A DNA stretch of 64,000 nt from an uncultured Gammaproteobacteria bacterium (lineage in GTDB: Bacteria; Patescibacteriota; Patescibacteriia; Magasanikbacterales; GWA2-37-8): the NCBI GenBank assembly GCA_964540825.1, contig CAZINT010000001.1:142735-206734 (forward strand). The letters are read 5' to 3'. Position 1 is the first letter of the stretch, and every line of letters begins with the position of its first letter. The notes beneath the pieces are model-generated. The model saw only the letters and a list, made by a program, of their open reading frames with translations, had not been told where the DNA came from and made no database searches. A program made the position numbers and the translations under genes. This document shows positions 2,769-15,581 of this stretch, one piece after another.

Positions 2769-4064
2769 ATGTACCACGTTTCCACGCTTAAAAATGGCAT
2801 TACGCTCATAACTGTTCCTGTTAAAGGTACCAAGGCGACTACGGTGTTAGCCATGTTTCCGGTTGGTTCGCGCTATGAAGATCCGCGTATTTTGGGTTGT
2901 TCGCATTTTGTAGAGCATCTCATGTTCAAAGGAACGATCAAGCGCCCCACCACACTTGATATTTCGCGCGCGCTTGATTCGTACGGTTCACAGTACAATG
3001 CTTTTACCAGTAAAGAATACACGGGCTACTACATTAAAATTGCCGGTAACAAGCAAACGGTTGCGTATGATATTTTGTCGGACATGCTCTATAATTCGCA
3101 GTTTGTAAAAGAAGAAGTAGAAAAAGAGAAGGGTGCGATTGTGGAAGAACTTCGCATGTACAAAGATAATCCGCTCATGGATATTGAAAATATTTTTGAG
3201 TCACTGCTTTTTGGCGATACGCCGCTCGGCCGCGAGATTGGCGGCAGCGAGAGAACGGTCCGTGGCGTCACCCGTGAAGAGCTTTGGGAATACTATCAGA
3301 AGCACTATTCACCCAAGAATATGGTGGTGGTCGTCGCGGGCGAGGTTGATCGCAAAAAAATTAAGGCAGTCCTGCCAAAACACTTTGCAACCAAAGAAGC
3401 ACCTAAAGGTGCGTTTAGTTTAAAGTATTACAAAAAGGATTTTGAAAAAATTGAGTATTTTAAAAAGAAGCTGCCGATCGCTGAGCGTGTGCATGTGCAC
3501 CAGAAAAAAGTCGATCAGTCGCAGATTATGCTCGGTTTCCCGGGTCTGGCGTATAACAGCAAGCAAGAAGACGTGCTTGATGTTTTGTCGACCATTCTTG
3601 GCGGTGCAATGAGCTCGCGTCTTTTTATCGAAGTCCGTGAACGCCGTGGGCTCGCGTATATGATCAGAAGCGGTGGAACCTTCTTCCGAGATACCGGAGC
3701 GGTGTACATCCAAGCAGGGCTTGATCCGGCGCGTATGGCTGAAGCGATCAAAGTCATCAAAGAGCAGCTCCAAAAAATGAAAGATGAAAAAGTCACCGAA
3801 AAAGAATTGGAGGACGCCAAGAACAATATTGCCGGGGGCATTGCATTAACCATGGAAGATTCCCACAATCAGGCAAATTGGTTTGCGGAAGAATTTATTT
3901 TCGCCAATAAAATTGAAACACAAGAAGAAAAAATTAGAAAAATCAGAAAAGTAACCGCTGGGCAGATTCAGAAATTAGCTCAGGAATTATTTGATTTCGA
4001 TCAATTGCGCGTTGCTGCGATTTCAACTGTCTCTAAAGAAAAAATAGTCGACATGCTCACATAA
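2769..4064 (+). CDS. M16 family zinc peptidase (pitrilysin-like)
   Basis: Inverted zinc motif HFVEHLMFKGT (HxxEH); ~430 aa two-domain architecture. Confidence 0.8.
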   Translation: MYHVSTLKNGITLITVPVKGTKATTVLAMFPVGSRYEDPRILGCSHFVEHLMFKGTIKRPTTLDISRALDSYGSQYNAFTSKEYTGYYIKIAGNKQTVAYDILSDMLYNSQFVKEEVEKEKGAIVEELRMYKDNPLMDIENIFESLLFGDTPLGREIGGSERTVRGVTREELWEYYQKHYSPKNMVVVVAGEVDRKKIKAVLPKHFATKEAPKGAFSLKYYKKDFEKIEYFKKKLPIAERVHVHQKKVDQSQIMLGFPGLAYNSKQEDVLDVLSTILGGAMSSRLFIEVRERRGLAYMIRSGGTFFRDTGAVYIQAGLDPARMAEAIKVIKEQLQKMKDEKVTEKELEDAKNNIAGGIALTMEDSHNQANWFAEEFIFANKIETQEEKIRKIRKVTAGQIQKLAQELFDFDQLRVAAISTVSKEKIVDMLT

Positions 4065-9568: not shown

Positions 9569-10138
9569 ATGGTTCAAATTTTTAATTTTTTTTCGTCTAT
9601 CTTCAATTTATTAGATTCCAGCGAGGGGGGCTTTTTAGCAAAAAATGCATCAGACCCTAAAAAGGAATATTTTTTAAAGCGAGCCGACTTTTGGTTGGAT
9701 GAGTTTGTTCACCTTCGCGAAATTACTAATTCTTATTCTGAAAAATTTGGCCGTCTCCAAATAGAGATTTCCTCTATTCTTATAGGTTTTTCTTCTGTAA
9801 TTATTCCTCAACTTTCAAGCCCGCAGGATAAAGGTTTTATAAATTGGGTATTTTTATCTTCTTGGTTATGTTTAATCCTTTCATTATTTTTTGGTTTAAT
9901 AAATTTAAAAATAAAAAGGGCTTTTTGGGAGGTGTTGACTGATAAGTCTCAACAAATAAATAGTCTTTGGTTTGATTATAGAAAAGGCGTGATTGCTGGC
10001 CCAGAAGTTGAAAGAGTTATTGCGGCTTTGTTTAATTCTAAGTTAACATCCCCGGGTATTTACTGGAAATTACAGTCTTCATTTTTATTTTTAGGGGTAT
10101 TGTTAATACTCGTTTTTACTGCGATTAAGATAACTTGA
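9569..10138 (+). CDS. hypothetical membrane protein (AT-rich)
   Basis: ~30% GC ORF with two or three hydrophobic helices. Convergent 36-bp overlap with the yibE/F-like gene. Confidence 0.4.
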   Translation: MVQIFNFFSSIFNLLDSSEGGFLAKNASDPKKEYFLKRADFWLDEFVHLREITNSYSEKFGRLQIEISSILIGFSSVIIPQLSSPQDKGFINWVFLSSWLCLILSLFFGLINLKIKRAFWEVLTDKSQQINSLWFDYRKGVIAGPEVERVIAALFNSKLTSPGIYWKLQSSFLFLGVLLILVFTAIKIT

Positions 10139-11254
10139 TCCTCTCGTCATCCACCAGCTCGCCAAAATCGTCGTCAGCGGTACGGCAAGTACCAGCACCG
10201 AACTTCCAACTAAGGTGCGAATTAATTCTTCGGCAATAAAATTACTATTGAGAGTGACCCACAGCTCCGTAGATTTTTGCATGTTGTAGAGAAGAAATAG
10301 AGGAAACGATGCGCCAACGTAAGCAAGTACCAGCGTATTCACGAGTGATGCAATATGTTCGCGGCCAACTGATAGACCGCTTTTGTATAATTGTGCGAGA
10401 CTGACGCTTGGGTTGGCAAGGTAAATTTCTTCAACAGTGGCAGCTTGCGCGGTGGTAATATCGTCCAGTACGCCCAAGACGCCGATCAGAATGCCGGCGA
10501 GGAGTACTCCGCGCAGATCAATCGTCCCTGTTCCGATTTGAAGATAAAATGCTTCTTCGCTGCCGGTGCCAGAAAGTTTGGCAAACGTGACAAAAGCGAT
10601 ATCCATAAGTATGGCCCCGCCGAGGGCGAGCAGGGTGCTGACCATCGCGATAGTTGTTCGGCGATTGAAGCCGTGGGAGAGAAAAAGCGAGAGGAAGGTA
10701 ATGGCTAGGGCAGCAATAATAGCTGCTCCGAGCGGCGGGTGCCCGCTGATGATACGCGGAATAAGAAACCAGAAAATTACGCTGGCGCTAAAGAGGAGTC
10801 CGATAATTGACGTGAGACCGCGCTTCCGGCCAAAAAATATTGCGAGGCCAAAGAATATGACGACCAGGATGAGAACGTTTGGCAAGCGGTACTTGTCGGT
10901 AATGTAATAAAAATCCGGAATGGGCGACGAGCTGGGTTTGGTAATAACTACGGTTTCACCGGGCTGTACTTTTTGATACTCCTGAATAGCAAAGGTTGCC
11001 CCGTGATCGATGATAATTTTTTTACCTTTCTCGTCGCCATTAAGAATCTCCAGCTGCAATTTTTGATGAAATTGTGAAACGCCGTCAACATCAATGTTGC
11101 CACTTTCCAGAATTTCTACGACCCGGGCACGGTAATAAGTGTCGGGTGTGGGCGCTTCTATGGCAGACTCGCCAACTTGCGCCAAGCTTATCGCTGGCAG
11201 GAGGGCGGTTATGCAGGCAATGAGGGCTGCGACAAAAAGCAATGTTTTTTTCAT
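10103..11254 (-). CDS. YibE/F family membrane protein
   Basis: Signal/TM N-terminus (MKKTLLF..), a soluble domain, then a multi-TM region with GVLGVLDDITTAQ typical of YibE/F. Confidence 0.65.
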   Translation of the reverse strand: MKKTLLFVAALIACITALLPAISLAQVGESAIEAPTPDTYYRARVVEILESGNIDVDGVSQFHQKLQLEILNGDEKGKKIIIDHGATFAIQEYQKVQPGETVVITKPSSSPIPDFYYITDKYRLPNVLILVVIFFGLAIFFGRKRGLTSIIGLLFSASVIFWFLIPRIISGHPPLGAAIIAALAITFLSLFLSHGFNRRTTIAMVSTLLALGGAILMDIAFVTFAKLSGTGSEEAFYLQIGTGTIDLRGVLLAGILIGVLGVLDDITTAQAATVEEIYLANPSVSLAQLYKSGLSVGREHIASLVNTLVLAYVGASFPLFLLYNMQKSTELWVTLNSNFIAEELIRTLVGSSVLVLAVPLTTILASWWMTRGSSYLNRSKNEY

Positions 11255-11383
11255 AGGAAATAATCTAGTCGAATATACAATAGTATAGCATGCTTTGCGG
11301 TTAAAAAAACAAGCGACCACCAGGTGTAGTGGCGGTCGCGTGTTCTCTATGACCTTCGAGGTCGATCGAAGGACGTGTTTATT

Positions 11384-11404
11384 ATATGCAACTTAGTTGC
11401 ATAT
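11384..11404. promoter_or_regulatory. palindrome ATATGCAAC-tta-GTTGCATAT (putative Zur box, copy 1)
   Basis: Perfect inverted repeat GCAAC-N3-GTTGC with extended arms. Shares its core with two copies in the zur divergent promoter. Confidence 0.5.
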
Positions 11405-11426
11405 GTCAAGGTGGGGTGTGGATACT

Positions 11427-11789
11427 TTAGTACCCCCAGTATGCGCCGTAGTAGACGACGCGTCCGCTGTAGCGCGGAAAGGATCGCAGACCTCGTGCTG
11501 AGGAGGGTGTTGACCAGCTATACATCACAGTGCGTGAGGCAGTGTATGCCGGGGCTGGTGCGGGGACGTAGCGCGTGCCGTAGGCTTGGATCCCGCTGCT
11601 GCCCGGTGACTGAGTGTGTGAATGCGTATCGGATCGATCTTCAGAACTGCTGCTCGCTTCGGTGTGGTCATGGTCGCCGTGACTGTCTACTTCTGGACTC
11701 GCGGTACTAAGGATGCGCGCGCTGACAGTGTGCGGCAAGACTACTGCTGCGAAAGCCACGAGTCCAATAAAAATAATACTTTTTTTCAT
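11427..11789 (-). CDS. secreted His-rich protein (putative metal binding), GC-rich
   Basis: Signal peptide MKKSIIFIGLVAFAAVVL, followed by HGDHDHTE..HSHTQ. Overlapping plus-strand Cys-rich ORF judged spurious. Confidence 0.5.
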   Translation of the reverse strand: MKKSIIFIGLVAFAAVVLPHTVSARILSTASPEVDSHGDHDHTEASSSSEDRSDTHSHTQSPGSSGIQAYGTRYVPAPAPAYTASRTVMYSWSTPSSARGLRSFPRYSGRVVYYGAYWGY

Positions 11790-11870
11790 AAGAGTATATA
11801 TAAATAAGTATCAAGGATCTGCAAAATTTTTCCAAAGCCTGGATACAAGGGCACCCGCAGGTGCCCGTAG

Positions 11871-12509
11871 TTAGTTGAACGAGAAGGTAAGGCCTGGTTT
11901 GAGAGCTACCTCCCATTCCCAGTACTTATGAAACCCGGGTGGAGCTACAACAGCCTCCACATCCAGGCCGAGCCATACCTGCTTGAACAGGCGTACGCTG
12001 ATGGTGGGGCTGAGTCCAAAGATGAAGGCGCTCCCTGTTTCGGGTTTGGTGAGTTTTTGTCCTGAGAGCGTCACCATCCGCCGTTCGCCATGGTAGCCCA
12101 TGAGCGGACCGATCCCGAGCCGGAGACGGTCGGCGATTGTTGCGGCGAATACGACACCGCAGTGGATGCCCCAGCTGTAGTTGCCGTCATCTTTGTTAAA
12201 GATGTCTCCGCCGCAATTTGCTTCGAACCATTCCGCGGACGCGGGGTGCAGTCCGATGTGGAACCAAGCGCCGTGGCCATCCTCAAGCCCGCCGCGAAGC
12301 GGGGGAGGGACGATAAAGCCGTTTCTGGCGTACGCGTACCCGCCGCTGATGTCGGCATGGACACGTTGCCCCGGCGTGTGTGTATGACCGTTGTGGATTT
12401 CTTTTTCAGGCGCTTCGTGGTGATCGTGCTCGTCGGCGGACGCCAGCAAGGGTGTAAGACTGGCCAGGGCGAGAGCGCAGAGGAAAATGAACGTTTGGCA
12501 CGTCCGCAT
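11871..12509 (-). CDS. secreted His-rich protein (putative zinc-responsive), GC-rich
   Basis: ATG at 12509 after a GGAG RBS. Signal peptide, then DEHDHHEAPEKEIHNGHTHTPGQRVH. Zur-box-like palindrome lies 11–31 nt upstream of the start. Confidence 0.6.
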   Translation of the reverse strand: MRTCQTFIFLCALALASLTPLLASADEHDHHEAPEKEIHNGHTHTPGQRVHADISGGYAYARNGFIVPPPLRGGLEDGHGAWFHIGLHPASAEWFEANCGGDIFNKDDGNYSWGIHCGVVFAATIADRLRLGIGPLMGYHGERRMVTLSGQKLTKPETGSAFIFGLSPTISVRLFKQVWLGLDVEAVVAPPGFHKYWEWEVALKPGLTFSFN

Positions 12510-12519
12510 CTTTTTCTCC

Positions 12520-12540
12520 AAATGCAACTAAGTTGCTTAT
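12520..12540. promoter_or_regulatory. palindrome AATGCAAC-taa-GTTGCTTAT (putative Zur box, copy 2)
   Basis: GCAAC-N3-GTTGC immediately upstream of the His-rich protein gene, in the zur divergent intergenic region. Confidence 0.55.
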
Positions 12541-12566
12541 GTGGTACCATACATCAGGGTAGTTGT

Positions 12567-12587
12567 CAATGCAACAAAGTTGCGTTT
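12567..12587. promoter_or_regulatory. palindrome AATGCAAC-aaa-GTTGCGTTT (putative Zur box, copy 3)
   Basis: Third GCAAC-N3-GTTGC copy, ~65 bp upstream of the zur ATG. Confidence 0.55.
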
Positions 12588-12651
12588 ATCCACAGGTGAG
12601 GCTTGAAAAAAGCTGAATTTGGTGCTATACTAAGGGCATAAATAATGTTAT

Positions 12652-13095
12652 ATGGCCAAGACAACTGAAGAGCTGCTCGAGAATCTTAAAGAAAACGGTG
12701 AGCGCATCACGACTGTTCGGCGTGCGCTGATTCAGATTTTGTCAAAAGATCATCAGCCGGTATCTGTTCAGGAAATTCTTAAAAAATTAAAATCAAGCGC
12801 CATCGCTGCCAACAAAACCACGGTATATCGCCAGCTCGAAACCCTTTTGAAATATAATTTTGTTCATGAGGTGCGCCTGTCTGATCGTTCCGTTTTATAT
12901 GAATTAGCCAATGGCAATGACCATCACCACCACCTGGTGTGTCTTGGTTGCGGGTCAATTGAAGATGTTTCGTTTCGTGATGACTTGGAGCGCCAAGAAA
13001 AAAATATTACAAAAACTAAAAAGTTTAAAATTATTCGCCATTCGCTTGAATTTTTCGGCTGGTGTTTAAAATGTCAGAAAAAATATGGAAAATAA
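12652..13095 (+). CDS. zur: Fur family transcriptional regulator, probable zinc uptake regulator
   Basis: Fur-like winged helix, HHHH motif, CLGCG and CxxC metal sites. Heads a znuACB-like operon. Confidence 0.8.
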   Translation: MAKTTEELLENLKENGERITTVRRALIQILSKDHQPVSVQEILKKLKSSAIAANKTTVYRQLETLLKYNFVHEVRLSDRSVLYELANGNDHHHHLVCLGCGSIEDVSFRDDLERQEKNITKTKKFKIIRHSLEFFGWCLKCQKKYGK

Positions 13096-14017
13096 AATGC
13101 TTAAAAAAATAGTCGGAGTAATCATCGGCGTCACTGGTATTGTTTTGGCGGGCTATTATATGTCTGGACGGAATGTGGTGGTTGCGCCGTCAAACAATGC
13201 GGTGAGTGTGGTTACCTCTTTTTATCCCTTGTACTTTTTTGCATCCGAAATTGCCGGCAATAGTGCGGAAGTATATACCATAACACCTGCCGGAGCAGAA
13301 CCGCATGAATATGAGCCGACTACTCAGGATATGGTTAAAATGCAGAAAAGTGACCTGGTAATTCTTAATGGGGGAGGCCTTGAGCCGTGGGGCGATGACG
13401 TGCGGAGCTCTTTATCAGGCAGCTCGCCGCGGGTGATTACCCTTGGAGCCACGCTCGCGGACCGTCAATTTATGGAAGACGGGACTTTAGTCCAAGATCC
13501 TCATGTTTGGCTTTCACCGGTGCTTGTCAAGGAAGAAGTCAAAGAAATTCTTGCCGGTTTTATAGCTGTTGACCCGGCACGCGCAGGTATGTATGAAAAG
13601 AATGCAGCAGCGCTGCTGGAGAAGCTTGATGCACTCGACACTGATTTTAAAAACGGCTTGGCACAATGTGCTCGTCGCGATATTGTTACGTCACATGCCG
13701 CGTTTAGTTATTTGGCAGCGGCATATGGTTTGCAACAAGTGCCTATTGCCGGCCTGTCACCGGAAGGCGAGCCCTCACCTCGGCAGTTGGCTGGGGTAGC
13801 TGATTTCATACGAAAAAATAAAATTACTCATATCTTTTTTGAAAGTTTGGTCAGTCCGAAATTTTCTGATACGCTGGCTCAAGAAGTGGGTGTAAAGACG
13901 CTGGTGCTGAACCCGCTCGAAGGGCTTACTCGTGATGAGATTGCGGCCGGTAAAACATATCTCACGGAAATGCGTCTTAATCTCGCTCATTTACGAATCG
14001 CACTCCAATGCCAGTAG
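13085..14017 (+). CDS. znuA: metal ABC transporter substrate-binding protein (ZnuA/TroA family)
   Basis: N-terminal TM/signal, FYPLYFFASEIAG, ITPAGAEPHEYEPT. Alternative start at 13097. Confidence 0.8.
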   Translation: MENKMLKKIVGVIIGVTGIVLAGYYMSGRNVVVAPSNNAVSVVTSFYPLYFFASEIAGNSAEVYTITPAGAEPHEYEPTTQDMVKMQKSDLVILNGGGLEPWGDDVRSSLSGSSPRVITLGATLADRQFMEDGTLVQDPHVWLSPVLVKEEVKEILAGFIAVDPARAGMYEKNAAALLEKLDALDTDFKNGLAQCARRDIVTSHAAFSYLAAAYGLQQVPIAGLSPEGEPSPRQLAGVADFIRKNKITHIFFESLVSPKFSDTLAQEVGVKTLVLNPLEGLTRDEIAAGKTYLTEMRLNLAHLRIALQCQ

Positions 14018-14772
14018 ATCATACTAAAAATATACTCGAAGTAAAGAATGTTTCGTTTGCCTATGGGGCTAACGAGGCGGTTTTAACGAACATTTCACTC
14101 AATATTCATTCGGGTGATTATTTGGGCATTATTGGTCCCAATGGTGGCGGCAAGACGACACTGCTCAAAATTATGTTGGGATTGCTCCGGCCGACTCAAG
14201 GCAGTGTTTTTTTGTTTGGTAAAGAGCTTAATGATTTTAAGGACTGGCCATCTGTGGGGTATGTGCCCCAGAAAGCGGTCCATTTTGAAGCGACTTTTCC
14301 CGCTACGGTAGAAGAAGTTGTCGCGATGGGGCGTTTTGGTAAGCGTGGCCTGCTGCGGATGTCGACCGGCGAGGATGTAAAAAAAGTCGCCGAAGCACTT
14401 CGGCACGTCGACATGTTGGATTTTAAAGACCGGCTTATCGGGGATTTGTCGGGCGGGCAACAGCAGCGGGTATTTATCGCCCGTGCCCTGGTTACGGAGC
14501 CAAAGATTATTTTTTTGGATGAGCCAACTGTGGGCGTTGATGTGGGGACTCAGGAACAGTTTTATCGCTTGCTTGAAAAATTAAACCAGACGCTCGGGCT
14601 AACGCTTGTTTTGGTGTCACACGATATTGATGTAATTGCCAATGAGGCTACGGAGCTTGCCTGTATTAACCAGACGCTTGTGTACCACGGAAGTCCGAAA
14701 GAATTTGTAAAAGGCGAATACCTCAAACAGCTTTACGGTAAAAACATCAAGTTTATTTTGCATGATCATTAG
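14008..14772 (+). CDS. znuC: metal ABC transporter ATP-binding protein (ZnuC-like)
   Basis: Walker A GPNGGGKTT, signature LSGGQQQR, Walker B IIFLDEP. Confidence 0.85.
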   Translation: MPVDHTKNILEVKNVSFAYGANEAVLTNISLNIHSGDYLGIIGPNGGGKTTLLKIMLGLLRPTQGSVFLFGKELNDFKDWPSVGYVPQKAVHFEATFPATVEEVVAMGRFGKRGLLRMSTGEDVKKVAEALRHVDMLDFKDRLIGDLSGGQQQRVFIARALVTEPKIIFLDEPTVGVDVGTQEQFYRLLEKLNQTLGLTLVLVSHDIDVIANEATELACINQTLVYHGSPKEFVKGEYLKQLYGKNIKFILHDH

Positions 14773-14780
14773 GTTGGCGT

Positions 14781-15581
14781 ATGTTTTTAGAAATTTTTCA
14801 GTATACGTTTATTCAACGCGCTCTTGGGGCGGGTATTCTGATTGCCATTATTGCGCCGCTCATTGGTATTTTTTTGGTACTTCGACGGTATTCGTTGATT
14901 GCCGATACGCTGGCGCATGTTTCACTTGCTGGAGTAGCGGTCGGCCTGTTGGCAGGTATTAACCCGATTATTACTGCACTGGCTACTTCTGGTACGGCAG
15001 CCCTGGCGATTGAAAAATTACGTAGCACCAAGAAAGTCTACGGTGAGACCGCTTTATCTATTTTTCTCTCAGGCGGTCTGGCGCTTGCTGTGGTTTTGAT
15101 AAGTTTGGCCCATGGGTTCAATGTGAATTTACTGAGCTACTTATTCGGCAGTATTGTAACGGTAACGGCGCAGGACGTGCGTTTAGTAGCGATAGTAGGG
15201 CTTATTATTATCGTGTTGCTATTCTCTTTTTATAAAGAGCTGGTGTATATCTCGTTCGATGAAGAGGCTGCTCGGGTAAGCGGCATTCCGGTTAAAGCGA
15301 TAAATTTTATTTTTATTCTGCTCGCAGCCATGACGGTAGCGCTCGCTATCCCAATTGTCGGTATCCTGCTCATTTCCGCGCTCGTGGTCATTCCGGTGGT
15401 AACCGCCTTGCAACTGAAGAAGAGTTTTAAGAAGACGCTTTGGTATGCAGAGGGTTTTTCTTTGTTTTCCGTGGTGAGCGGTATACTCGTTTCCTTTTAT
15501 TTCGACTTGTCTCCCGGGGGTACGATCGTGTTGATTGCCTTGGCTTTGTTTAGCCTAATTTTACTTTTTAAACGCTCCTAA
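14781..15581 (+). CDS. znuB: metal ABC transporter permease (ZnuB-like)
   Basis: 8-TM permease; family-typical segments IADTLAHVSLAGVA and TVTAQD. Confidence 0.85.
   Translation: MFLEIFQYTFIQRALGAGILIAIIAPLIGIFLVLRRYSLIADTLAHVSLAGVAVGLLAGINPIITALATSGTAALAIEKLRSTKKVYGETALSIFLSGGLALAVVLISLAHGFNVNLLSYLFGSIVTVTAQDVRLVAIVGLIIIVLLFSFYKELVYISFDEEAARVSGIPVKAINFIFILLAAMTVALAIPIVGILLISALVVIPVVTALQLKKSFKKTLWYAEGFSLFSVVSGILVSFYFDLSPGGTIVLIALALFSLILLFKRS

Follow-up and report, generated by a model that had tools for sequence, protein, structure and literature searches.

A candidate zinc-starvation regulon with a GCAAC-N3-GTTGC operator in Patescibacteria

The locus described here, located within a 64-kb stretch of DNA (hereinafter, the window) from an uncultured, ultra-small, Magasanikbacteria-like member of the Patescibacteria (CPR), very probably represents the core zinc-starvation (Zur) regulon of this organism, with a Fur-family protein acting as the zinc sensor. 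Most likely, an operator distributed across the patescibacterial radiation controls the genes for a zinc importer, for an as yet uncharacterised membrane transporter and for two orphan secreted proteins rich in His. A zinc-starvation regulon had already been proposed in the preliminary description of this DNA, and this reading is now supported by the conservation of the boxes at orthologous promoters, their co-variation with the recognition helix of the regulator and their linkage to ZnuA, ZIP, YibE/F and His-rich genes.

Palindromic boxes and promoters of the locus

An exact scan of the entire window for GCAACNNNGTTGC (GCAAC-N3-GTTGC) yielded three copies (11388–11400, 12524–12536 and 12571–12583), all located within 1.2 kb and each on a promoter, compared to a mean of 0.09 copies and a maximum of one in dinucleotide shuffles of the window. 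The coordinates and sequences of the three palindromes noted in the preliminary description are therefore reproduced, and the rest of the window contains no further box-like site, the next-best 17-mers having three mismatches, which is the chance level. Box 1 (11384–11404; ATATGCAACTTAGTTGCATAT), a putative Zur operator, is a perfect 21-bp palindrome, ATATGCAACT-T-AGTTGCATAT, which fills the spacer of a perfect sigma-70 promoter on the minus strand (11381–11409; TTGACA at 11409–11404, a 17-nt spacer and TATAAT at 11386–11381, with 12 of 12 matches) facing a YibE/F-like gene; the location of this box upstream of that gene had been described originally. Box 2 (12520–12540; AAATGCAACTAAGTTGCTTAT) is located downstream of the −10 region and ahead of the GGAG ribosome-binding site (12519–12516) of a gene for a predicted secreted barrel, an arrangement that had also been pointed out before, and covers the expected transcription start of that gene. 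Box 3 (12567–12587; CAATGCAACAAAGTTGCGTTT) touches or overlaps a promoter element at each end, namely the barrel promoter's −35 hexamer and, at the opposite end, the TTATCCACA element belonging to the zur promoter. None of the three palindromes is assigned a strand.

The barrel-operon promoter (12541–12569, minus strand) consists of TTGACA (12569–12564), a 17-nt spacer and the extended −10 element TGgTACCAC (12549–12541), the latter being a weak, inferred element. The TTGACA hexamer immediately following box 3 is conserved in seven related loci (L001, L004, L005, L008, L009, L020 and L026). On the opposite strand, the zur-znuACB promoter (12603–12631, plus strand) combines TTGAAA and TGcTATACT across a 17-nt spacer (10 of 12 matches plus the TG extension). 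Box 3 lies outside this core promoter, approximately 18 nt upstream of its −35 hexamer; because the two do not overlap, autoregulation of zur is uncertain in this clade. A box upstream of the −35 hexamer can activate, as in the case of zitB of Streptomyces coelicolor (PMC9371925).

The TTATCCACA element (12586–12594, plus strand) is found 8 nt 5′ of the −35 hexamer of the zur-znuACB promoter and is retained beside the distal box in about 15 relatives. It accompanies promoters and keeps a fixed spacing to their −35 hexamer, not to the box; in relatives, the element is additionally found ahead of promoters located upstream of tRNA-Asp and of a DUF3800-V RNA. Given this constant distance and these additional occurrences, we rejected it as a part of the operator. 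The upstream element TATCCACA (11417–11424, minus strand), 7 nt 5′ of the −35 hexamer of the box-1 promoter and 2 nt past the stop codon of a 120-aa gene, resembles a DnaA box.

The Fur-family regulator, its putative box and the zinc assignment

The putative Zur (147 aa; 12652–13095, plus strand) belongs to the Fur family (PF01475; E-value 1.9e-24; 86.6 bits against a cut-off of 23.1; full length, positions 14–134) and carries the unusual recognition helix NKTTVYRQL, a DHHHH cluster and two CxxC pairs (97/100 and 138/141). Four orthologues show no change in the Cys residues expected to form the structural Cys4 zinc site (C97/C100, C138/C141) or in the His-rich sensing cluster (D90-H91-H92-H93-H94). 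A search with the pattern [DNE]DHHHHLV retrieves mycobacterial and streptomycete homologues, and the DHHHHLVC motif is common to the regulator and actinobacterial Zur-like homologues (pattern matches; 3mwm, 2o03). Nevertheless, the score against the Zur equivalog model NF008646 is only 50 bits versus a cut-off of 167, the NCBIfam Fur and PerR models slightly outscore Zur, with none of the three coming near its cut-off, and among PDB entries Fur of Helicobacter pylori is the best match. Sequence alone cannot assign a metal to this regulator or name it Zur.

The regulator gene overlaps the start of znuA and is translationally coupled to an AdcA-like operon comprising znuA (13085–14017; PF01297, 1.2e-80), znuC, which encodes the ABC ATPase (14008–14772), and znuB, which encodes the ABC-3 permease (14781–15581), all on the plus strand, so that the initial view of a Fur-family gene with HHHH and CxxC pairs heading a ZnuA/C/B operon holds. 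Among PDB entries, the binding protein is most similar to AdcA (4e-61), YcdH (2e-57) and Lmb, and in the alignment with AdcA (7jj8) it retains the three His ligands of Cluster A-I zinc-binding proteins (PHEYEP, DPHVW and (T/Q)SHAAF); it lacks a His-rich loop. The similarity to AdcA/YcdH and the retention of the three His ligands point to zinc as the substrate of this importer component. ZIP genes are found in the same operon or next to a box in L015, L039 and L093.

Across approximately 518 kb of patescibacterial loci, we identified 63 exact boxes, compared to 0.34 expected from composition; the box occurs in about 45 loci from many lineages. The matrix built from these 63 sites gives the consensus aAATGCAACTnAGTTGCATTt, a 7-1-7 repeat TGCAACT-n-AGTTGCA with the flanks aAA/TTt. 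Nearly all of the boxes are intergenic and located at promoters of fur-family, znuA, YibE/F, ZIP or barrel/His-rich genes, and the box is kept at orthologous promoters in every relative examined. For instance, the orthologue of box 1 is again embedded in a TTGACA-box-TATAAT arrangement in L001, L005, L008, L009 and L026, and box 2 is present at the orthologous position in these five loci as well as in L004 and L020. In Doudna-, Gottesman-, Sacchari-, Morani- and Curtissbacteria and in Microgenomates, TTGACAaat-BOX-attaTTAT directly precedes the regulator gene, a placement that has the appearance of the classic autoregulation pattern.

The box tracks the recognition helix of the regulator. Where the regulator has the helix NKTT[VI]YR[QE], its locus contains the box, either exact or with one mismatch, whereas the loci of homologues with a G[LM]xTVYRTL helix, from Actinobacteria, Omnitrophota and Syntrophomonadaceae, lack the box. 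This correlation is partly built into the sample, since NKTTVYRQ was itself the peptide pattern used to collect the related loci.

The preliminary description referred to a non-standard operator, which is accurate with respect to the sequence but not to the architecture. The latter is that of an ordinary Fur-family box, a 7-1-7 inverted repeat in which G2 and C14, the signature positions of Zur boxes (PMC9371925), are invariant across all 63 sites, and central position 8 is A or T. By contrast, the GCAAC/GTTGC core does not resemble the A/T-rich core of the described Zur-box consensus. The known Zur boxes of Bacillus subtilis and Actinobacteria do not fit the GCAAC/GTTGC motif, and neither does the Escherichia coli motif TRWNAYRWTATAWYRTNWCA as quoted in PMC6103462. 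A literature search for a CPR Zur motif and for GCAAC/GTTGC in connection with the Fur family recovered no description of this motif. As a positive control, the actinobacterial box TGAAAATnATTTTCA was sought in the retrieved actinobacterial loci, where only matches with two mismatches, at variable distances, were found.

Among characterised systems, actinobacterial Zur (ScZur of S. coelicolor and FurB/Zur of Mycobacterium tuberculosis) is a Fur-family dimer with the same CxxC/CxxC structural zinc site and DHHHH(LVC) sensing cluster as the regulator. The actinobacterial box is likewise a 15-bp 7-1-7 repeat starting with TG, ending with CA and carrying G2/C14 (PMC9371925), and its copies likewise overlap promoters of zinc uptake genes, several per promoter region. 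However, the two regulators share only ~35% identity, the recognition helix is NKTTVYRQ here but GLTTVYRT in actinobacterial Zur, the core of the box is GCAAC/GTTGC rather than A/T-rich, and central position 8 is A/T instead of the conserved G-C. In the Zur regulon of the monoderm B. subtilis, a Fur-family protein also represses an ABC zinc importer (YcdH/ZnuA-YceA-YcdI) at a palindromic box, and the binding protein from our locus is most similar to YcdH and AdcA. The B. subtilis box, TCGTAAT-n-ATTACGA, differs from the one described here, the binding protein of our locus differs in lacking the His-rich loop, and YibE/F together with the orphan exoproteins stands where B. subtilis has YciC/ZinT-type proteins; among the box-linked genes, there is no C-minus ribosomal paralogue. 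Finally, zinc starvation in streptococci induces, through AdcR, an AdcA-type importer along with His-rich surface or secreted proteins thought to pass zinc to the importer (AdcAII and the polyhistidine-triad Pht proteins). The analogy is functional only: AdcR belongs to the MarR family, in contrast to the Fur-family regulator of our locus, and Pht proteins are unrelated in sequence or fold to the barrel and its partner.

The secreted proteins, the leader RNA and YibE/F

The gene following box 2 (11871–12509, minus strand; ATG at 12509) encodes a 212-aa protein of an orphan family, with a signal peptide, a disordered His-rich tail and a predicted barrel. Its mature N-terminus, DEHDHHEAPEKEIHNGHTHTPGQRVH, is indeed His-rich, as is the second secreted protein that had been reported to follow it, a 120-aa His/Asp-rich partner (11427–11789, minus strand) composed of a signal peptide, AR-ILSTASPEVDSH, a stretch rich in Asp and His, YVPAPAPAY and a tail rich in Tyr and Arg. 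Partners with the same motifs are found behind the barrel gene in L001, L004, L005, L007, L009, L026, L095 and L097. Pfam and NCBIfam searches with both His-rich proteins produced no match. Word-index and full HMM searches recovered 5–6 members or representatives of the barrel family in 1.8–5.8 billion proteins and two matches for the small partner. The L026 gene is probably a distant member of the barrel family, and the first divergent gene of L009 was rejected as a member, given that it has no detectable homology.

The 212-aa protein was modelled as a closed OmpA/NspA-like barrel of eight long antiparallel strands. As in NspA, OmpW, OmpA, the OprF N-domain and Thermus TtoA, large hydrophobic residues alternate in the strands with small or polar ones. 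In several homologues (P0002, P0004, P0007 and P0009), the last residue is F or W, reminiscent of the β-signal of outer-membrane barrels; the protein from the window ends in FN. Identity to known eight-stranded outer-membrane proteins is only 6–13%, however, no Pfam outer-membrane protein family was matched, and the barrel is distinguished by its His-rich N-terminal tail and by conserved His, Glu and Arg on the small-residue face. Moreover, it has been proposed that Patescibacteria possess no outer membrane (PMC12102498).

Transcripts from the box-1 promoter would begin with a leader RNA (11303–11376, minus strand) that contains a 5′ hairpin (11372–11353) and a strong intrinsic terminator (stem 11339–11313 plus a U-run) between the promoter and the YibE/F gene. 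The terminator has a 10-bp stem with seven GC pairs, followed by TTGTTTTTTT, and is extended by A-tract/U-tract pairing; the minimum free energy of the leader fold is −35.5 kcal/mol (z-score −6.9). The two-hairpin leader recurs in L001, L005, L008, L009 and L026 with compensatory changes in the stems. An Rfam 15 scan of positions 10900–13200 at E ≤ 10 returned only chance-level matches (E above 4), and the leader was accordingly rejected as a known riboswitch or sRNA. Just past the terminator, ~28 nt before the YibE/F ATG, is an extended −10-like element, TGcTATACT (11282–11290, minus strand), which is retained as TGnTAT(A/G)CT in the same five loci.

The YibE/F-family membrane protein itself (383 aa; 10103–11254, minus strand; PF07907) was modelled with an N-terminal extracytoplasmic β domain and six long transmembrane helices, and the model resembles the transmembrane module of the RND superfamily (AcrB, CusA/ZneA, MmpL, SecDF, Patched/NPC1). 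One of the helices contains the invariant GVLDDxTT...E, which we take to recall the Asp-Asp proton relay in TM4 of RND proteins. Compared to these, YibE/F is half-size, with one six-helix module and a small β domain in place of 12 helices and large porter domains, shares only 8–16% identity and forms a separate Pfam family. YibE/F is a candidate RND-like transporter that would be driven by the proton motive force. A literature search on the function of YibE/F produced nothing relevant. YibE/F adjoins a box in L013, L014, L021, L023 and L026, and in three of four arbitrarily chosen loci it is linked to fur or zinc transporters.

Alternative explanations, proposed regulation and implications

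That the palindromes, instead of being protein operators, form RNA hairpins, act as terminators or represent mobile-element ends or remnants is exceedingly improbable. They are perfect inverted repeats, and a weak Rfam-style hairpin match spans box 2 (BSnc150, E 7.3), but a 5-bp stem with a 3-nt loop is too weak for a terminator, the boxes occupy promoter spacers and −35 edges on both strands, the sequence itself, beyond its pairing, is invariant over phylum-level distances, and neither transposase genes nor target duplications are found nearby. We also regard as very unlikely that the same operator and regulator respond to another metal or signal, through a Fur, Mur or PerR-type sensor controlling a manganese or iron importer. 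Such an assignment would agree with the sub-cut-off preference of the regulator for the Fur and PerR models and with the near-equal NCBIfam scores of the binding protein for the zinc protein AztC (157 bits) and the manganese protein MntC (153 bits); yet the PDB comparison ranks AdcA, YcdH and Lmb 20 orders of magnitude above manganese proteins, and the third ligand is His (TSHAAF), whereas in Mn-specific binding proteins it is Glu. Furthermore, ZIP genes belong to the box-linked regulon, His and Asp abound in the exoproteins, and no iron or peroxide genes were seen adjoining the boxes in the related loci.

The elevated GC content of the two His-rich genes (0.59 and 0.57, with GC3 of 0.68 and 0.58, for the 212-aa and 120-aa ORFs, respectively, versus 0.456 for the window) is as originally noted, but the conclusion drawn from it, namely, that these exoproteins were horizontally acquired, is not borne out. 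A recently acquired foreign island at 11400–12520, captured later by the local regulator, would account for this composition, the absence of Pfam matches and a barrel fold typical of diderm bacteria; we nonetheless consider it highly unlikely. The orthologues at the same syntenic position in L001, L004, L005 and L007 are also 4–12 GC points above their own genomes. Moreover, the genes keep the order barrel–partner–(box promoter)–YibE/F at 46–57% protein identity, all family members with readable context, including the most distant P0008 and P0009, are patescibacterial and box-linked, and no non-CPR relative was found among 1.84 billion representatives; no outside donor is visible. The barrel and its partner thus seem to make up a syntenic cassette that is under box control and confined to Patescibacteria, with high GC as a family trait. 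Also rather unlikely is the possibility that the box-1 promoter yields a free zinc-repressed sRNA of ~75 nt made up of the 5′ hairpin and the terminator, in the manner of RyhB or FsrA, which are repressed by Fur, and that the extended −10 promoter is the only one to drive YibE/F. The canonical terminator ~70 nt after a perfect promoter, the strength of the fold, the separate TGnTATACT promoter past the terminator in all six loci and the lack of a conserved anti-terminator or alternative fold among the leaders of related loci favour such an RNA. However, the promoter–hairpin module is present in all six loci with YibE/F downstream and missing from L004, which has no YibE/F and where the operon closes with a plain terminator; YibE/F is directly linked to a box in other lineages; and the RNA is almost fully base-paired with no obvious seed, is not conserved in sequence between subclades and has no Rfam match.

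From the observed sequence anatomy, conservation and co-variation with the regulator, we infer for the zinc-starvation regulon that the regulator binds in a zinc-dependent manner, in which direction it regulates and what the proteins do, as follows. When zinc is sufficient, a dimer of the regulator would bind the 21-bp palindrome. At box 1, it would exclude RNA polymerase from the TTGACA-17-TATAAT promoter. The barrel-operon promoter is bracketed by the other two boxes, of which box 2 covers the expected transcription start and box 3 adjoins the −35 hexamer. Because box 3 additionally borders the upstream element of the zur-znuACB promoter, which points the other way, this one site could damp both promoters. 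When zinc is scarce, the repressor would come off, and the ZnuABC importer, YibE/F, the barrel and the small partner would be made; the His-tailed barrel and the Asp/His- and Tyr-rich partner most likely would serve to capture zinc on the surface of the cell. Transcripts from the box-1 promoter would meet the 5′ hairpin and the strong terminator before YibE/F, and might be attenuated or ended as an RNA of ~75 nt, with YibE/F having its own extended −10 promoter as well. As an improbable extension, the cell, as an episymbiont, might place the secreted OmpA-like transmembrane barrel with its His-rich tail, which the zinc repressor would control together with a dedicated partner, in its host's outer membrane, or in some outer layer of its own that has gone unrecognised, and take zinc in this way, with YibE/F, as a half-size RND-like machine, acting as a proton-driven exporter or assembly factor for the pair.

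Patescibacteria encompass a large, mostly uncultured part of bacterial diversity, in which transcriptional regulation is almost unknown. The helix–operator pair (NKTTVYRQ and TGCAACT-n-AGTTGCA) would offer a handle for predicting zinc regulons in thousands of metagenome-assembled genomes and a natural experiment on the rewiring of Fur-family specificity. The YibE/F family (>7000 homologues) gains a first functional context, zinc starvation, together with a structural hypothesis of a half-RND module, and the orphan, apparently box-controlled barrel–partner cassette presents a predicted outer-membrane fold that conflicts with the assumed monoderm envelope of these bacteria.

Putative operator boxes and their probable regulator

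The three palindromes of the preliminary description are real: in the 64-kb window, GCAAC-N3-GTTGC is found at 11388, 12524 and 12571 only, against a mean of 0.09 copies in dinucleotide shuffles of the window. When extended, the first copy (box 1, 11384-11404) is a perfect 21-bp palindrome, ATATGCAACT-T-AGTTGCATAT. The gene content was also borne out. The Fur-family gene (PF01475; 12652-13095, +), the stop of which overlaps the start of an operon for ZnuA, an ABC ATPase and an ABC-3 permease, is divergent from two ORFs of 212 aa (11871-12509, −) and 120 aa (11427-11789, −), both encoding a signal peptide and a His/Asp-rich mature N-terminus, followed by the YibE/F gene (10103-11254, −).

Only four relatives of the 212-aa protein were found among 5.8 billion proteins. 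The relatives' contigs (L001-L007) are syntenic, with Fur/ZnuA divergent from the 212-aa homologue, then the small secreted gene and, usually, YibE/F; every one carries two boxes in the divergent region (box 2, 12520-12540, and box 3, 12567-12587, in the window) and a third in a TTGACA-box-TATAAT arrangement before YibE/F. A search with the regulator alignment, taking one genome per species, yielded 80 loci. Almost all patescibacterial loci among them (Magasanik-, Doudna-, Gottesman-, Sacchari-, Morani- and Curtissbacteria, Microgenomates) have an exact box next to the regulator gene, typically as TTGACAaat-BOX-attaTTAT, and no box was found at non-patescibacterial homologues. Exact sites total 63, compared to 0.34 expected from composition. 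The symmetrised matrix of the sites reads taAATGCAACTnAGTTGCATTta, a 7-1-7 repeat TGCAACT-n-AGTTGCA. Loci with the recognition helix NKTT[VI]YR[QE] carry the box or a one-mismatch form and those with G[LM]xTVYRTL carry none, in a sample for which NKTTVYRQ was one of two retrieval patterns.

In L007, L015, L019, L021, L023, L027, L030 and L031, the centre-to-centre spacing of the two boxes flanking the znuA/barrel promoter is nearly fixed at 67-73 bp, versus 43-50 bp in the window clade, an indication of two separate operator layouts. In many TPA MAG records whose title reads 'uncultured Gammaproteobacteria bacterium' (L008-L010, L016-L020, L022, L023, L026, L029, L030, L035 and L043), the regulators, boxes and gene order are Magasanikbacteria-like, and in L046, titled 'Eggerthellaceae', two boxes overlap at a distance of 17 bp; the labels or bins of these records look wrong. 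Read as codons, the box ATGCAACTNAGTTGC gives M-Q-L-S-C; predicted ORFs are therefore often extended through the operator and begin with a false N-terminus, as at window position 12527 (TTG start, 218-aa ORF), in P0007, in the first gene of L097 and in several further ORFs. MQLSC could thus serve as a handle for finding box-linked genes in protein databases.

Promoters at the boxes and the leader of YibE/F

Box 1 occupies the spacer of a minus-strand promoter that, in a consensus scan, matches sigma-70 perfectly (TTGACA 11409-11404, 17 nt, TATAAT 11386-11381). Downstream are a 5′ hairpin (11372-11353, −) and a strong intrinsic terminator with a U-run (11339-11313, −), and the 77-nt RNA containing both folds with −35.5 kcal/mol (z = −6.9). 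This promoter-hairpin-terminator module, with compensatory changes in its stems, is present in all six loci with YibE/F downstream (the window, L001, L005, L008, L009 and L026) and is missing in L004, which lacks YibE/F and closes the operon with a plain terminator. This distribution favours a leader or shared terminator over an independent sRNA made from the box-1 promoter. We nevertheless retain the sRNA as an unlikely alternative, given that no conserved anti-terminator was found in the six leaders and that a separate extended −10 promoter (TGcTATACT, −) follows the terminator, ahead of the YibE/F start codon at 11254.

For the barrel operon, encoding the 212-aa protein, the minus-strand order is TTGACA (12569-12564, directly after box 3), 17 bases, TGgTACCAC, box 2, GGAG and the ATG at 12509, so that the two boxes bracket the promoter. 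Right after box 3 lies the element TTATCCACA (12586-12594, +), and the zur promoter, TTGAAA-17-TGcTATACT (+), starts 8 bases past it; the same element, as TATCCACA (11417-11424, −), also precedes the box-1 promoter, with 7 nt between it and the −35 hexamer. These are the only sites in the window with the composite TCCACA-N6-10-TTGA[CA]. Across box-bearing loci, 18 of 39 occurrences of TTATCCACA lie no further than 60 nt from a box, in stretches that account for 1.6% of the sequence. Further copies precede TTGACA promoters ahead of tRNA-Asp (L005, L020, L026) and of a DUF3800-V RNA (L020), lying 7-10 nt upstream of −35 hexamers at L005:1706, L020:9458 and 3470, and L026:6895; what stays constant is the spacing from the −35 hexamer rather than that from the box. 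The element matches the DnaA-box consensus exactly. We read it as an activator site or an upstream promoter element specific to the lineage, and the copy at the zur promoter may be occluded by box 3.

The gene for ribosomal protein L33 (15675-15830, +), 93 nt past znuB and syntenic in L001, has its own promoter without a box (TTGATT-17-TGgTACACT); the protein retains the first CxxC, and the second pair is C-x3-D…H in place of CxxC, so that it may be either a zinc-sparing paralogue or the sole copy.

Metal specificity

The regulator scores below the cut-off of the Fur, PerR and Zur models, its best PDB match is Helicobacter pylori Fur, and it cannot be named from sequence alone. Zinc is indicated by the context: AdcA (4e-61), YcdH and Lmb are the best matches of the binding protein, in which the three His ligands are kept; a ZIP transporter gene adjoins the box or lies in one operon with the regulator in L015, L039 and L093; and the DHHHHLVC cluster of the regulator is common to actinobacterial homologues. 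The zinc regulon proposed initially is thus well supported by comparative evidence. The suggestion of a non-standard operator holds for the sequence but not for the design, which is that of the Fur family. G2 and C14, signatures of Zur boxes (PMC9371925), are kept, whereas the GCAAC core is unlike described consensus sequences; the motif was undescribed in the literature searched. The predicted operator thus keeps the standard Fur-family design with a new sequence, which is conserved across Patescibacteria.

The ZnuA/AdcA-like protein (13085-14017, +) has a gap in place of the His-rich loop of AdcA/YcdH, and a His-rich insert is present in ZnuA of L026. His-rich tails are found on the secreted proteins of the presumed regulon, which may thus supply the loop function in trans.

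YibE/F and the secreted proteins

YibE/F adjoins the box in L013, L014, L021, L023 and L026, and of four patescibacterial YibE/F loci picked arbitrarily, three show linkage to the regulator and to zinc transporters (znuACB-fur divergent from yibEF in L088, fur-yibEF in L090, and fur-ZIP-yibEF with a box in the promoter spacer ahead in L093). The model (pLDDT 87, 64-sequence alignment) combines a beta domain at the N-terminus with six long helices, and the invariant GVLDDxTT…E resembles the RND proton relay. YibE/F would then be a transporter driven by protons and made when zinc is scarce. A DUF6629 membrane protein adjoining the box or YibE/F in some lineages (L088 5171-5803; L027, box at 3124, minus strand) is a candidate further regulon member.

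The two secreted ORFs are GC-rich (0.59 for 212 aa and 0.57 for 120 aa, window 0.456), hence the earlier proposal of horizontal acquisition. Each orthologue is, however, GC-raised relative to its own genome; we therefore reject recent acquisition and regard horizontal transfer as unsupported. The variable, possibly mobile part of the neighbourhood looks to be, rather than this segment, the slot between the AHSA1 genes and YibE/F, with a low-GC ORF (9569-10138, +; GC 0.32, GC3 0.27) without a Pfam match; in L001 (6707-7691), it is occupied by SocA_Panacea and hypothetical genes, likewise of low GC.

In the model of the 212-aa protein (pLDDT 73.6, 5-sequence alignment), a His-rich, disordered tail precedes a barrel of eight strands, in which large hydrophobic residues alternate with small or polar residues. 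The family has invariant His, Glu and Arg positions, and the C-terminal residue of several homologues is F or W. Such a predicted outer-membrane-like fold is unexpected in Patescibacteria, for which the absence of an outer membrane has been proposed (PMC12102498). A full HMM search of 1.84 billion proteins recovered only six representatives. The most distant, P0008 and P0009, are box-linked on patescibacterial contigs, with the small partner (motifs xII(S/T)PA..E... and YVPPPAP) encoded 3′ of them, and barrel and partner are therefore an ancient cassette of two genes, restricted to this lineage and predicted to be controlled by the box. Deduced from models and genomic context, this outer-membrane-like barrel, the association of YibE/F with zinc together with its RND-like fold, and the promoter element that accompanies the boxes are the more surprising findings.
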